A stretch of DNA of 64,000 bases from Alphaproteobacteria bacterium (GCA_017559525.1 JAFYRI010000012.1:15164-79163); one strand, 5' to 3'. Numbered from the stretch's first letter, positions 1-19,794 are shown. The notes: generated from the letters alone by a model not told the origin. A program made the numbers and translations.

Positions 1-425
1 CTAGCCCATAATAGACGCATATAGTCATAAATTTCGGTAATGGTTCCAACGGTAGAACGAGGATTTTTACTGGTTGTTTTTTGTTCAATCGAAATGGCTG
101 GAGATAATCCCTCAATAGAATCAACATCTGGTTTTTTCATTAAATCCAAAAATTGACGAGCATAAGCTGATAAACTTTCTACATATCGGCGTTGCCCTTC
201 GGCATAAATTGTATCAAAGGCCAGGGATGATTTTCCCGAACCCGATAATCCTGTAATTACCACTAACTTGTCTTTTGGAATATCAACATCAATATTTTTT
301 AGATTGTGTTCTCTAGCACCACGAATTTTGATGAATTTGTTGCTGTCTTTAAATGCTTTTTCCAAATGTACATTTGTTGATACGTTAATTGTGACATTGT
401 CTTGGGTATAGGTTTTATCTGTCAT
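1..425 (-). CDS. uvrA: excinuclease ABC subunit A, N-terminal part (continues beyond window start)
   Basis: Reverse translation gives [15 protein letters not shown]...[59 protein letters not shown], the hallmark UvrA N-terminus with Walker A motif. The ATG is at 423-425 on the minus strand. Confidence 0.85.
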
Positions 426-520
426 ATAAAAATCCTTTGTCAGTTATTTTTGTTATTATATATTTTTTTGTTTAAAAGTACAAGAGAAAAAGAATATATT
501 TTTCGATGTCCGAAAAATCA

Positions 521-549
521 TTGACAAAAATAATGCAATATGATATAAT
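521..549 (+). promoter_or_regulatory. sigma70-type promoter (TTGACA-17 nt-TATAAT) upstream of the GNAT array
   Basis: Perfect consensus -35 TTGACA at 521-526 and -10 TATAAT at 544-549 with a 17-nt spacer. It lies inside the first track ORF, which argues for a downstream start at 581. Confidence 0.5.
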
Positions 550-580
550 TTTTCCACTATCTTATGCGAAAGGGAATTTG

Positions 581-1192
581 ATGATTGAAAATTTTGAAAT
601 GCCTTCTGAAATTAAAGGTAAGCGTATTTGTTTAAAGCGTGTAGAGGAAAATGATACAAATGCAATTAAAAAAGTTTGTGATGCAATTTTTAGCGAGGGA
701 ACACTAAAGCGAATTGAAAAAGTAATGGGATATTTTTCTGATGGACCTGATGATATTCCGTCTTTAGTTCGTTCTTTGAATCGTACATTTGAAAAAAATG
801 GTTTTAATTATTTTATTTTTAAAGATGATAAAGTTATTGGTCAAATTAATGGTTTCCCGTGTCAAGGTTATCAACGTTCAGTTGTGACGATTTGGGGATG
901 GATTTCTGATGCAGAAATGCGTAAAGGATATATGAAAGAGGCAATTAAGTTATTGGAAAATGAACATTTTTCAAGAAGTTTAATGTCTTTAGAAATTTCT
1001 GCTTATAATAATTTAGCGGTTCATGCTTTATGTCATTCTTTAAATTTTTATGGCGCGGGTGAAAGAACGCCTTATCAATATTTTTATCGCCATCGCTCTG
1101 ATTGGATGTCAGAACAAATGCCACAACGTATTATTCATCATGATGACATTAGTCAAGCTCATTCTCAGAAACAAAAGGGAGAACGTTCATAG
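581..1192 (+). CDS. GNAT family N-acetyltransferase (RimJ/RimL-like), paralog 1 of 5
   Basis: Shares motifs with the four downstream paralogs (R[IV]xLKR, W[IL]xxxxxGKGYM). Start chosen at MIENF, downstream of the promoter at 521-549. Confidence 0.6.
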   Translation: MIENFEMPSEIKGKRICLKRVEENDTNAIKKVCDAIFSEGTLKRIEKVMGYFSDGPDDIPSLVRSLNRTFEKNGFNYFIFKDDKVIGQINGFPCQGYQRSVVTIWGWISDAEMRKGYMKEAIKLLENEHFSRSLMSLEISAYNNLAVHALCHSLNFYGAGERTPYQYFYRHRSDWMSEQMPQRIIHHDDISQAHSQKQKGERS

Positions 1193-1789
1193 ATGTCTGT
1201 GATGTTCCGATATAATACAAATTGTTGGCCTGACAAACTTGTTGGGCCTCGTGTTGTATTAAAAAGATTGGAGCCAACACAAGAATATGCTGATTTATTT
1301 CACCAAATAATCAGCAATAATACAAAACATTTAACTGATAGTTTTGCTTATTTAGTGCATCAAATTAATTCATCGCAGGCTGCTTTGTCCTTTTTAACAG
1401 CCGCTTATCAAGATTTTCTTTATGAAGCGCGAGATGATTATGGTATTTTTGTCGGAAATGATTTTGTTGGTGCGGTTTTGGTTTGGGGAAAAAGACGCAC
1501 AGATCGTGAAATTATGTATTGGTTAAAAGAAGAAGCTTGTGGTTATGGTTATATGCATGATGCTTTGGATTTAATTGAACAAGAACATGCTAAATGTGCG
1601 CCTCATCATATTTTATTTGCTAATGTTAATGCTAAAGCAAGGGCTTCTGCAGCTTTATTAACAGCACGTGGTTATAATTTGGATGGACTTTTCTTTTTTA
1701 AACGACCAATGTCTAATGAATTGTCTCGAACGGTTATTCAGTCTGCGATGCATTCAATGCCGAAAGATGAGGGGCGAATATATGGATAA
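1193..1789 (+). CDS. GNAT family N-acetyltransferase, paralog 2
   Basis: PRVVLKRLEPTQEYA and YWLKEEACGYGYM motifs. The ATG follows the stop of paralog 1 immediately. Confidence 0.6.
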   Translation: MSVMFRYNTNCWPDKLVGPRVVLKRLEPTQEYADLFHQIISNNTKHLTDSFAYLVHQINSSQAALSFLTAAYQDFLYEARDDYGIFVGNDFVGAVLVWGKRRTDREIMYWLKEEACGYGYMHDALDLIEQEHAKCAPHHILFANVNAKARASAALLTARGYNLDGLFFFKRPMSNELSRTVIQSAMHSMPKDEGRIYG

Positions 1790-2354
1790 AATATTAAGGT
1801 CAAATCGTATTCGCTTAGAAATTTTGTCACCATTGCCGGAATATGCCGAACAATTGTCTGAAATTATTTGTCGTAACCGAGATCATTTAGACATGTGGCG
1901 AGGTGATGTTTTAAAATATGAAACATCCGAGTTATCGTTTTATAAATTGTTAATGGATAATTACTATTATGAACGTAAAGAAGGATATTTTTATCATATT
2001 TTTAAAGGTAAAAAAATTATTGGCCATATCAGTTTGTTGTCTTCTGGTAAATTTTGGGAAACATCTTATTGGTTAGATAAAGAATATACAGGACAAGGGT
2101 ATATGCGAGAGGCTTTAAAAACCTTGGAAAATGCTTGGTTTCAAAAAAGTACAGCGCCTATTACTGTTCTTATAAATCCCGAAAATACACCTTCTTTGAA
2201 AGTTATTCATAAAATGGGATATACTTTGTTTGGGCAGAACAGATATTTGAAAAATTTTGCTATGTTTATGAGGGAACAAAATGTACATCAACCATCATTA
2301 ATTATGTCAGCAAATCAACAAATTTTTACACAAAATCAACATGAGAAGGATTAA
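1782..2354 (+). CDS. GNAT family N-acetyltransferase, paralog 3
   Basis: Start at MDKILRSNRIRLEIL overlaps the stop of paralog 2 by 8 nt (translational coupling). YWLDKEYTGQGYM motif. Confidence 0.6.
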   Translation: MDKILRSNRIRLEILSPLPEYAEQLSEIICRNRDHLDMWRGDVLKYETSELSFYKLLMDNYYYERKEGYFYHIFKGKKIIGHISLLSSGKFWETSYWLDKEYTGQGYMREALKTLENAWFQKSTAPITVLINPENTPSLKVIHKMGYTLFGQNRYLKNFAMFMREQNVHQPSLIMSANQQIFTQNQHEKD

Positions 2355-2356
2355 AG

Positions 2357-2923
2357 ATGATACCATATCCAACCGTAATAGAAGGAACTCGTATTGTGTT
2401 GAAAATGTTATCTCCAACACCGACAAACGCACAAATGGTTTGTGATTTGGTGAAAAAAAATACAATGTATTTATATCCTTTTTTGAAAGAAGTGGTAACT
2501 GATGGTAAAGATGTATTAAATGCCTTACATCACTTGCGTCGGGCTGATAATTTATGTCGAGAAGATGATACGGCATTGTATTATATTTTTCATCAAGGAA
2601 AAATGGTTGGCGCAATTGAGGCTTTGATGTATCCTCATGAACGGGAGTTGCGTTTTTGGTTGGATCATGATGCAAAAGGTAAAGGATTGATGCGTGAAGC
2701 TGTTTTATTGATGGAAAAGATGTTATTTGAACGTAATCAAGATAGAATTATTTTAGGAATTTTAGATAGCAATACGCCATCACTTAAACTTGCAAAGCGA
2801 TTAGGATATACTGAAGATTGGGAAGGTTATTTCGAAATAACATATGATAAATTTCATATGTTAAGAAAAAATAATTCAAGAAAAAGTTTAACTAATTTAT
2901 ATGATCGAACAAATGGTAGATAA
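2357..2923 (+). CDS. GNAT family N-acetyltransferase, paralog 4
   Basis: TRIVLKMLSPTPTNA and FWLDHDAKGKGLM motifs. Confidence 0.6.
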   Translation: MIPYPTVIEGTRIVLKMLSPTPTNAQMVCDLVKKNTMYLYPFLKEVVTDGKDVLNALHHLRRADNLCREDDTALYYIFHQGKMVGAIEALMYPHERELRFWLDHDAKGKGLMREAVLLMEKMLFERNQDRIILGILDSNTPSLKLAKRLGYTEDWEGYFEITYDKFHMLRKNNSRKSLTNLYDRTNGR

Positions 2924-2935
2924 AGGAAGTATATA

Positions 2936-3517
2936 ATGTATCCTAGTAGAATTATAGGACGAAATATTGAGTTGAAAATTTTACCGGCAACTGAGGAAAA
3001 TGCTGAAAAGGTTTATTATGTTATTCAAAATAATAAAGAATATTTGTCTCAATTTTTTCAACGATTGGTTTCAGCTTTTGATAATAAAAAACAGGCATTA
3101 GATATTTTAAAATTTGATGAAGAACAAAGATGGCTTAATAATTCTGTAAATTATTATATTTTTTCAAAGAATCAGTTGATTGGTGAGATTGCTGCCGATT
3201 GGTCTAGGCAAAATAGTAGAGCTTCTATTATTTATTGGCTGGATAAATCTCATGTTGGAAAAGGATATATGTCTCAAGCTTTGAAAATGATGGAAAAGAA
3301 CCTGTTTTTAAATGGGTATTCTGAAACGCGTTTGTATATTGATGCTGCCAATTGGCGTTCTGTAAATGTTGCAAAATACAATTACTATCAATTAAGTGAT
3401 GATGGTAATTATTATTTTAAAACACGTCAAATGTATAATAATCCTCGTCAACCAATATGCCATAAACAAGATTATATTGGACGTTTTTGTCGTTTGTTTC
3501 GGACGCGAAATAGATAA
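2936..3517 (+). CDS. GNAT family N-acetyltransferase, paralog 5
   Basis: RNIELKILPATEENA and YWLDKSHVGKGYM motifs. Confidence 0.6.
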   Translation: MYPSRIIGRNIELKILPATEENAEKVYYVIQNNKEYLSQFFQRLVSAFDNKKQALDILKFDEEQRWLNNSVNYYIFSKNQLIGEIAADWSRQNSRASIIYWLDKSHVGKGYMSQALKMMEKNLFLNGYSETRLYIDAANWRSVNVAKYNYYQLSDDGNYYFKTRQMYNNPRQPICHKQDYIGRFCRLFRTRNR

Positions 3518-3538: not shown

Positions 3539-3566
3539 ACCGCCGTAAAATCGGGCGGTATTTTTA
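3539..3566. terminator. bidirectional rho-independent terminator between the GNAT array and rpsU
   Basis: A-run, then hairpin CCGCCG...CGGGCGG, then T-run. Sits between convergent genes. Confidence 0.45.
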
Positions 3567-3584: not shown

Positions 3585-3800
3585 TTAGTATCCTTCGCTA
3601 TGGTAGCGTTTTCTAGCCATTTTACGAGAACGACGAATGCATTCAGTTGCTTTTCTGGCTTTTTTTTCAGATGGTTTTTCATAATATCTGCGCAATTTCA
3701 TTTCACGGAAGCTGCCTTCTCTTTGCATTTTCTTTTTTAAAACACGCAAAGCTTGTTCGATATTATTATCATGAACAACGATAGTAACTATGGTACTCAC
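3585..3800 (-). CDS. rpsU: 30S ribosomal protein S21
   Basis: 71-aa basic protein ...[30 protein letters not shown], typical of S21. Confidence 0.85.
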
Positions 3801-6330: not shown

Positions 6331-6388
<58 letters not shown>

Positions 6389-6406
<18 letters not shown>

Positions 6407-6838
6407 TTAAAAAAAGTCACCGTTAAGGTGGCTTTTTTTAATGGTATTTGTTGCGGGTCGGACTGACGAAGACAGTCAGTTCGGATGGAGGGATAGGCGG
6501 ATGTCAATACGCCGAAACAATCCCGACATAATGTTGAGGCTTAGCCGAAACAGCCCCTTGTGGGTGAGCTTTAGCGAATAATCCGACAACCGGCACCATT
6601 AAAAAAAGTCACCGTTAAGGTGGCTTTTTTTAATTGTATTTGTTGCGGGTCGGACTGACGAAAAATGTCAGTTCGAATGGAGGGATAGGCGGATGTCAAT
6701 ACGCCGAAACAATCCCGACATAATGTTGAGGCTTAGCCGAAACAGCCCCTTGTGGGTGAGCGAAAGCGAATAATCCGACAACCGGCACCATTAAAAAAAG
6801 TCACCGTTAAGGTGGCTTTTTTTAATTGTATATTTTTT
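6389..6838 (+). repeat. 192-bp unit repeated 2.3 times in tandem; each copy starts with the 18-nt tRNA-Thr 3' end plus the tRNA terminator
   Basis: ATCCGACAACCGGCACCA plus the terminator hairpin recur at 6389, 6581 and 6773, an exact period of 192 bp. Copies are more than 95% identical and the third is truncated. Confidence 0.8.
6411..6440 (+). terminator. rho-independent terminator after tRNA-Thr
   Basis: AAAAAAAGTCACCGTTAAGGTGGCTTTTTTT: an 8-bp stem, a TTAA loop and a T-run. Confidence 0.6.
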
Positions 6839-6847
6839 TAAAATAAT

Positions 6848-19404: not shown

Positions 19405-19778
19405 TGGTCAGATGGTCGGATAATCGCTGGCATATTATAATGGTATGTTGGAGGAAAGTCCGGGCTTCACGGGAATACGGTACTGGATAACGTCCAGGCG
19501 GGGTGACCCGACGGATAGTATAGCAGAAAGCAAACCGCCGATGTTTTATATCGGTAAGGATGAAACGGCGAGGTAAGAGCTCACCGCATTTTTGGTGACA
19601 AAAGTGGCTAGATAAACCCTACCGGAAGCAAGACCAAAGTAAGGCAAACCAAGGTTTACCTTGTTCAACGAGAATTCCTGCTCGGTTGCCGCTAGGTAGG
19701 TCGCTAGAGGGTTTTAGTAATAAAGCTCCCAGACGAATGATTATCGATAACAAAACCCGGCTTATAGATCATCTGACT
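19405..19778 (+). ncRNA. rnpB: RNase P RNA, bacterial type A
   Basis: Universally conserved GGAGGAAAGTCCGGGCT, AGCAAACCGCC, GGTAAGAGCTCACCG, ACAAAACCCGGCTTATAG blocks. 5'/3' ends pair as the P1 helix (TCAGATGGTC/GATCATCTGA), followed by a T-run. Confidence 0.85.
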
Positions 19779-19794
19779 TTTTTTTATATCAATT

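Follow-up and report, generated by a model that had tools for sequence, protein, structure and literature searches.

Near the start of a 64,000-nucleotide stretch from an Alphaproteobacteria bacterium (GCA_017559525.1 JAFYRI010000012.1:15164-79163), the whole of which is called the window here, five genes for acetyltransferases of the GNAT superfamily, g1 to g5, lie head to tail on one strand beside uvrA. On balance, this array is probably one operon of five paralogous, RimL-like acetyl-CoA N-acetyltransferases, which would have been duplicated anciently and would act on different, variable acceptors. What is new in the locus is the combination of a shortened β6-β7 hairpin with a C-terminal tail as a signature of the proteins, an array of one to six such genes linked to uvrA in uncultured gut Alphaproteobacteria, and a fast, mosaic divergence of these genes behind a promoter whose -35 block is invariant. 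The array represents a known enzyme family that has expanded in one lineage and is uncharacterised there; it is not a new mechanism. A literature search returned no description of tandem GNAT arrays, albeit a weak search in which 'gnat' mostly retrieved 'gnathostome'. The elements of the locus are as follows.

1 to 425, minus strand: 5' end of uvrA, with the UvrA N-terminus in translation; the full gene is called on L001, from the same genome
521 to 549, plus strand: sigma-70 promoter, with -35 TTGACA at 521-526, a 17-nucleotide spacer and an extended -10, TGaTATAAT, at 541-549; 12/12 match
569 to 576, plus strand: g1 ribosome-binding site AAAGGGAA, read from the sequence
581 to 1192, plus strand: g1, GNAT of 203 amino acids (Pfam Acetyltransf_1; GNAT fold in an AlphaFold2 model)
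1193 to 1789, plus strand: g2, RimL-like GNAT of 198 amino acids (Acetyltransf_3)
1782 to 2354, plus strand: g3, RimL-like GNAT of 190 amino acids (Acetyltransf_3)
2357 to 2923, plus strand: g4, of type g4a, RimL-like GNAT of 188 amino acids (Acetyltransf_3 and Acetyltransf_1)
2936 to 3517, plus strand: g5, RimL-like GNAT of 193 amino acids with a basic, Cys-containing tail (Acetyltransf_3)
3539 to 3566, plus strand: intrinsic terminator, an ACCGCC/GGCGGU stem followed by a U-run (-17.6 kcal/mol, z = -4.06)
3585 to 3800, minus strand: rpsU

The five open reading frames (ORFs) thus fill the interval between the divergent uvrA and the convergent rpsU, and the junctions between them are tight. 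The g1 stop codon, TAG at 1190-1192, is followed directly by the g2 ATG at 1193, leaving a gap of 0 nucleotides, the g3 ATG at 1782 precedes the g2 stop at 1787-1789, giving an overlap of 8 nucleotides, and the spacings from g3 to g4 and from g4 to g5 are 2 and 12 nucleotides, respectively. An earlier note on this DNA had described five same-strand GNAT genes packed head to tail at this place, with the same gap and the same overlap, and the coordinates bear it out on these points, all five ORFs matching GNAT Pfam models. A start of the first gene at 506, where the region of that note begins, had to be corrected: a mechanical ORF from there would contain the promoter, and the true start is ATG 581, giving 203 amino acids, because the AAAGGGAA ribosome-binding site, the NCBI call (P0003) and the start codons of six related loci, which align with it, all point to it. 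An AAAGGA/AAGGGA block is kept upstream of the aligned g1 ATG in the related loci, and a Shine-Dalgarno-like sequence lies 7-13 nucleotides 5' of the ATG in all five genes. Neither between nor beside the five GNAT genes was a small ORF found that has signals of its own, nor any Rfam element in or near the operon.

The promoter, which the earlier note had given as a perfect TTGACA-17-TATAAT at 521-549, is confirmed at all twelve positions and carries in addition a TG extension of the -10 at 541-542. It is the sole perfect match to this pattern in the 64 kb, against an expectation of 0.06 from shuffled sequence. Its -35 block, AAAATCATTGACAAAA, is invariant across seven loci, the -10 being TATAAT, TATACT or TATATT, and the promoter is strong and probably constitutive. 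At the other end of the array an A-run flanks the hairpin of the terminator at 3539-3566, which therefore probably works in both directions and serves the convergent rpsU as well. The 8-nucleotide overlap of g2 and g3 is kept in 7/7 arrays examined and the abutment of g1 and g2 in 5/6. The view that the five genes form one operon is therefore supported by one conserved promoter, by tight or overlapping junctions kept in relatives and by one terminator; the five genes would be co-transcribed, and the genes of the array may also be translationally coupled.

The spacer between uvrA and g1 holds a second block, at 453-484 of the window (TTATTATAnnTTTTTTTnTnnnAAAnnACAAG), which is likewise conserved across seven loci. 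Within it, a TATAAT on the minus strand (complement 454-459) is likely to belong to the uvrA promoter. No alphaproteobacterial LexA box (GTTC-N7-GTTC) was seen in this spacer on a reading by eye only.

Protein family, hairpin and tail

The five proteins are assigned by profile, and g1 also by fold, to the RimJ/RimL/MccE-like branch of the GNATs. Against Pfam Acetyltransf_3 (PF13302, cutoff 25.4 bits) g2, g3, g4 and g5 score 30.4, 58.2, 41.1 and 45.4 bits; g1 falls just under the cutoff at 23.9 bits and passes that of Acetyltransf_1 (25.4 bits against 20.7), for which g4 scores 41.5 bits. The best curated model for g2 to g5 is the NCBIfam RimL model (NF007539), at 13.4-38.4 bits against a cutoff of 184 bits, the highest of these scores, 38.4 bits, being that of g5; g1 has no match to this model. 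These scores are far under the equivalog cutoff and RimL orthology of g1 to g5 is accordingly rejected, as are identities as rimL, rimJ, rimI, speG, arsN or an aminoglycoside acetyltransferase, none of these NCBIfam equivalogs being reached at its curated cutoff. In this regard, the profile comparison proposed in the earlier note places all five genes in the RimJ/RimL-like branch and none of them in a curated RimL, RimJ, RimI, aminoglycoside or speG family.

Structural comparisons point the same way. A profile of the five proteins searched against the PDB retrieves Salmonella RimL (1s7k/1z9u) first, at an E-value of about 3e-11, followed lower down by a putative ribosomal-protein-serine acetyltransferase, a RimJ-type S5-alanine acetyltransferase, spermidine acetyltransferases and MccE (3r95, E 2.4e-6). 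An AlphaFold2 model of g1, built with 13 orthologues, has a predicted local distance difference test score (pLDDT) of 82 and a predicted template-modelling score of 0.78, with the GNAT elements in the expected order β1-α1-α2-β2-4-α3-β5-α4-β6-7 and residues 181-203 disordered; its Foldseek search against the PDB gave 356 matches at E <= 1e-3, topped by RimJ, RimL, YdaF and MccE. For g3 the corresponding model, likewise built with 13 orthologues, reached a pLDDT of 63, left the C-terminal third unmodelled and was too poor for the fold search.

Identity among the paralogs is low, 24-32% by local BLASTP and 17-31% over global columns, which is below the 30-40% given in the earlier note; g1 is the most divergent and g3 the most conserved. 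The two motifs said there to be shared by all five hold exactly only in part, R[IV]xLKxL in g2 and g4 and YWLDxxxxGKGYM in g5, with approximate versions elsewhere (that of the second motif in g1 is GWISDAEMRKGYM). The pyrophosphate-loop glycine between β4 and α3, which is G116 of g1, does not vary among the five or in any orthologue group; g1 has an Arg at the first position of the G-x-G. In RimL, Ser141 has been proposed as the general acid and Glu160, on β6, as the general base (PMC4964394), and a Ser aligned with Ser141 is present in g2 to g5 and in their orthologues. Beyond this serine, RimL, the L7/L12-serine N-alpha-acetyltransferase whose Salmonella structures (1S7K, 1S7L, 1S7N, 1Z9U) are the best PDB sequence match of the array, shares with it the Acetyltransf_3 domain and the YWLD...G.G.M β4-α3 loop. 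Overall identity to RimL is only 15-21%, and the array differs from it in the shortened β6-β7 hairpin, in an added tail of 17-38 amino acids, in the missing serine of g1 and in having five to six paralogs side by side where RimL is a single gene.

What sets the array apart within its branch is this change of architecture. The β6-β7 segment after the GY.L.G motif is 3-12 residues long in every array member, the median for 122 other representatives of the family being 18, and the C-terminal tail has a median of 17-38 residues in the array groups against 5 in the other representatives. The analysis took proteins of fewer than 260 amino acids. Short hairpin and long tail occur together in only about 19 of the 122 generic RimL-like representatives, and these cluster beside the array groups in a neighbour-joining tree; those that were checked are array members themselves, either lying on shared contigs or carrying the consecutive accessions MGN1062773-75, which in another Alphaproteobacteria metagenome-assembled genome (MAG) run in the order g1-like, g2-like, g3-like. 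On these two characters the short-hairpin, long-tail proteins are a distinct subfamily within the RimL-like branch, the named members of which all come from uncultured Alphaproteobacteria MAGs.

The tails extend beyond the GNAT core and carry a recurring short motif, [RKQPT]x[ILV][ICV]x[HS], with the core [ILV][ICV]x[HS], as follows.

1140 to 1192, plus strand: g1 tail, with PQRIIHH
1700 to 1789, plus strand: g2 tail, with RTVIQS
2270 to 2354, plus strand: g3 tail, with PSLIMS
2860 to 2923, plus strand: g4 tail
3440 to 3517, plus strand: g5 tail, with QPICHK

Compared with shuffled tails, the motif is enriched in the g1, g2, g3 and g4b groups, weakly so in g5 and not in g4a, bearing in mind that sequences within a group are not independent. 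A hydrophobic motif of this kind is compatible with strand exchange between subunits.

Copy number and divergence beside uvrA

In every relative the array occupies the same place, divergent from uvrA, which adjoins it in L007, L008, L010, L013-L016, L019 and L022 (handles of this form denote the related loci) and is the only neighbour kept beside it in all of them. A contig scan with the g1 family returned three loci only, and a word-index search with g5 four proteins only. The number of GNAT genes at the locus is 1, 4, 5 or 6, distributed as follows.

L008: g1 only
L007, L013 and L022: g1, g2, g3, g5
Window and L020: g1, g2, g3, g4a, g5
L010: g1, g2, g3, g4b, g5, with L014 the same as far as its contig reaches (it ends inside the fourth gene)
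L016-L018: g1, g2, g3, g4a, g4b, g5

From this it is evident that g1 is the anchor of the locus, being present in every relative and, in L008, the sole GNAT gene beside uvrA, and that slot 4 is variable: g4a is absent from L007, L013 and L022, replaced by its paralog g4b in L010 and L014, and accompanied by g4b in L016-L018. Two of the related MAG records derive from roe deer cecum and sheep rectum, the third carrying only the label SGB_4816; these sources agree with the earlier suggestion of a host-associated organism, and one relative has a GcrA gene, as would be expected of Alphaproteobacteria.

The array genes diverge several times faster than the genes around them. Between the window and L020, the closest pair (glycyl-tRNA synthetase, GlyRS, 99.6% identical), g2 to g5 are 83-88% identical, with ratios of nonsynonymous to synonymous substitution (dN/dS) of 0.085, 0.088, 0.153 and 0.177, respectively, which clearly point to purifying selection on these four genes; g1 is about 45% identical in the same comparison, the contigs of both L020 and L021 ending inside it. 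At the next distance UvrA is 92-94% identical, NrdR 98.7%, GlyRS 97.6% and three hypothetical neighbours 79-87%, and the GNAT proteins have fallen to 39-45% (g1), 47-49% (g2), 60-70% (g3) and 41-46% (g5). Across the loci as a whole UvrA is 92-97% identical against 39-78% for the GNATs, S21 and GlyRS being nearly invariant at 100% and 97.6-99.6%. Expressed as dN against L010, the GNAT genes reach 0.33-0.58, neighbouring hypothetical genes 0.09-0.14 and GlyRS 0.015. Every orthologue examined has an intact ORF, and group-specific motifs are strongly conserved within the groups.

This divergence is also mosaic. L022 is the nearest relative of the window by UvrA (97.4%) and by g2 (77.8%), yet its g5 is 77-79% identical to those of L007 and L013 and only 47.6% to that of the window, an order opposite to the one given by UvrA, and its g1 is nearer to those of L010, L007 and L013 (59-62%) than to that of the window (52.5%). 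Steady rates cannot yield such incongruence of g5 and g1 with UvrA, and therefore diverged alleles have taken the place of single genes, or else such genes have gone through lineage-specific bursts of change. On the other side of uvrA, itself 93-97% identical, a family-2 glycosyltransferase gene (L001 4690-5745) has likewise evolved fast or been replaced, its product being 96.6% identical to that of L022 1808-2863 and 45% to that of L010 1893-2933.

Acceptors, rival readings and origin

In the reading that we favour, the sigma-70 promoter would drive an operon of five paralogous, acetyl-CoA-dependent N-acetyltransferases belonging to a subfamily to which an ancient tandem duplication in an uncultured lineage of gut Alphaproteobacteria gave rise. 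The array would have been inherited beside uvrA, with gain and loss at slot 4, single genes having been replaced like cassettes or having diverged in bursts. Each enzyme would move the acetyl group of acetyl-CoA onto the primary amine of a different acceptor, the acceptors being either variable and environment-facing, such as toxic amines and microcin C-type aminoacyl-nucleotide or peptide antibiotics, or fast-evolving proteins. Variable, non-housekeeping acceptors appear more likely than invariant ribosomal proteins because the enzymes outpace the nearby translation proteins and are gained, lost and swapped. In this regard, MccE and RimL acetylate processed microcin C, on the alpha-amine of toxic aminoacyl-nucleotides, according to PMC4964394, which cites Novikova 2010, Agarwal 2011 and Kazakov 2014, and this is the only biochemical precedent in the branch for such a role. 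The C-terminal domain of MccE belongs to the same GNAT branch (3R95, E 2.4e-6; template-modelling score 0.66-0.78 to the g1 model); unlike MccE, the array has no MccB-like or transporter genes with it in the window or in the related loci, and MccE-like sequences have neither its indel nor its tail.

Few groups of bacterial proteins are as numerous as the GNATs or as poorly assigned, and the locus amounts to a natural experiment in their diversification, in which four to six paralogs with positional orthologues and a diagnostic structural change turn over fast and the promoter -35 stays fixed. Were the acceptors antimicrobials or gut amines, widespread uncultured gut bacteria would possess in the array a multi-enzyme resistance locus of a new kind; were they proteins, the very few N-terminal acetyltransferases listed for bacteria would be joined by more. 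Either way, the array is a good target for substrate screening.

Several observations weigh against the favoured reading. Geometry is the sole basis on which the five genes are taken to be co-transcribed. No linked biosynthetic, transport or toxin gene points to a small-molecule target, and the PADLOC defence models match none of the five GNATs or the sixth one in the window. The catalytic activity predicted for the array GNATs is itself a matter for caution: the position of RimL Ser141 is Ala or Val in 13/13 g1 orthologues, and the segment corresponding to that of Glu160 is remodelled in all five proteins, with no acidic residue conserved there across groups (the aligned RimL fragment ended at 154), such that activity is not to be assumed. 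Between the window and L020, g2 to g5 are no faster than other accessory neighbours (82-92% identity), and the rate excess of the GNAT genes would therefore be episodic or recombinational rather than steady; nor was dN/dS > 1 ever seen in comparisons of the array, and positive selection is thus not demonstrated. Finally, bootstrap support for monophyly of the array is about 1%, and the mean identity among the g1, g2 and g3 groups, 19-23%, equals that to unrelated RimL-like representatives (19-25%).

The alternative that survives best, itself unlikely, is that the five proteins are housekeeping N-alpha-acetyltransferases like RimI, RimJ and RimL, each with a ribosomal or translation protein of its own to modify at the N-terminus. 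The nearest solved relatives are indeed RimL and RimJ, RimL is the best NCBIfam model for g2 to g5, and in the window the array is followed by rpsU, a 104-amino-acid ORF and the GlyRS gene; elsewhere, an unrelated member of the family is fused to a ribosome hibernation factor (S30AE; P0070). Set against this are RimL scores of at most 38 bits where 184 are required, and targets that are nearly invariant facing enzymes that are 40-78% identical and present in 1 to 6 copies. Moreover, the rpsU/glyS linkage is not conserved, other genes following the array in L013 and L022, and we therefore reject it as meaningful.

It is distinctly doubtful that the paralogs are the subunits of one or more hetero-oligomeric acetyltransferases, for instance RimL-type dimers of unlike chains in which g1 is an impaired partner and coupling keeps the stoichiometry. 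RimL is an obligate dimer (PMC4964394), the abutting and overlapping junctions are kept in relatives, g1 lacks the equivalent of Ser141, and the tail, found in all groups and disordered in the monomeric g1 model, carries a recurring hydrophobic motif. Fusions with 2, 4 and 9 Acetyltransf_3 domains also exist elsewhere, in P0092 and some twelve other representatives about 370 amino acids long (two domains), in a 748-amino-acid protein of Branchiibius hedensis (WP_170119834.1/PWJ26004.1, P0180; four) and in the metagenomic P0078 of 1754 amino acids (nine). Such multi-domain RimJ/RimL-type proteins resemble the array in setting repeated RimL-like modules side by side; they are single polypeptides from other phyla, and uncharacterised, whereas the array consists of separate genes. 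Subunits adapted to one another are not expected to be replaced independently, as single genes of the array are, nor to leave g1 as the only GNAT gene beside uvrA with no array gene after it, as in L008, nor to come and go at slot 4 with the rest retained.

A bolder extension of the variable-acceptor reading, which we hold to be rather improbable as a whole, is that the locus is a recombining, copy-variable cassette at which deeply diverged alleles are exchanged among related gut Alphaproteobacteria under diversifying selection, forming a strongly expressed and customisable 'acetylation shield' against a shifting range of toxins that bear amines, among them aminoacyl-nucleotides like microcin C, peptide antibiotics, and amines from the host or its diet. 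In addition, the tails, being conserved, might let unlike chains pair, multiplying specificities. The GNAT toxins TacT, AtaT and ItaT are, like the array proteins, small and encoded in compact operons; the array differs from them in having no antitoxin gene and no PADLOC match, in belonging to a different GNAT branch and in consisting of five genes all of which encode GNATs.

As to the origin of the array, the earlier note had seen in it an old amplification followed by divergence, and had proposed a phylogeny to date the duplications. A neighbour-joining tree of the five proteins and 142 other sequences, comprising array members of the relatives and representatives of the family, with 300 bootstrap replicates and outgroups, resolves the positional orthologue groups at 92-100% each (100% for the g2 group); its deep branches are unresolved, such that monophyly of the five is neither proved nor refuted and the duplications are not placed by trees. 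An assembly of the array from separate GNAT acquisitions, rather than by duplication in situ, is very improbable, even though it would account for the negligible bootstrap value and for between-group identities of g1 to g3 at the family background. Since those identities equal the background, the distances are saturated, and the rare indel, that is the short hairpin together with the tail, is more informative on origin than sequence distance. This deletion and extension are common to all the groups and rare in the family, more distant MAGs show, by consecutive accessions, the same succession of a g1-like, a g2-like and a g3-like gene, g4a, g4b and g5, alone among the groups, are measurably nearer to each other (28-31.5%), and no flanking mobile-element genes or anomaly of G+C content were found in the region. 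It is the shared indel and the synteny, not the trees, that support one old amplification, and we conclude that the paralogs probably descend from one ancestor of altered architecture, that the core order g1-g2-g3 would be ancient and that slot 4 would have been filled and emptied later than this core. That the copies are redundant and drifting under relaxed constraint, with no distinct functions, as their very high divergence, variable copy number and dN/dS of 0.24-0.58 at saturated distances might suggest, is hardly credible in view of intact ORFs in every orthologue examined, dN/dS of 0.085-0.18 at unsaturated distance, strongly conserved group-specific motifs, an invariant -35 box and a retained ribosome-binding site and 8-nucleotide overlap.

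Other features of the locus and the window

The sixth GNAT gene that the earlier note had placed near 46833 does exist, at 46818-47381; it belongs to an unrelated, Acetyltransf_1-type branch and is rejected as a member of the array family, matching the five at an E-value of 1.6e-4 at best.

In the relatives, small, Cys-rich, secreted-looking proteins of 133-179 amino acids recur at varying positions around the locus of uvrA and the GNAT genes, as follows.

L020: 3014-3445
L010: 9307-9846
L022: 1029-1460, minus strand
L016: 2106-2516, minus strand
L008: 1493-1894 and 4188-4592, both minus strand

These share the motif ETCA.G.G...YC.S..MNWW.A..WC..G at a pairwise identity of 26-49% and are C-type-lectin-like by eye only; they match no Pfam family and have no homologue in the 64-kb window.

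Further along the window, a segment of about 7.9 kb, 6444-14303, is absent from L020, which joins window position 6443 to 14304. It begins just after a tRNA gene (6331-6403) and contains an 825-amino-acid HD-domain ORF, a second tRNA gene (11942-12015) and a 513-amino-acid ORF in a stretch of 25% G+C; short repeats of the 6443/14304 junction lie at 6580-6639 and 6772-6849. The segment is probably a genomic island. The window also encodes ordinary housekeeping RNAs, namely a class A RNase P RNA at 19408-19780 (297.6 bits) and a small signal recognition particle RNA at 53942-54036 (46.5 bits).

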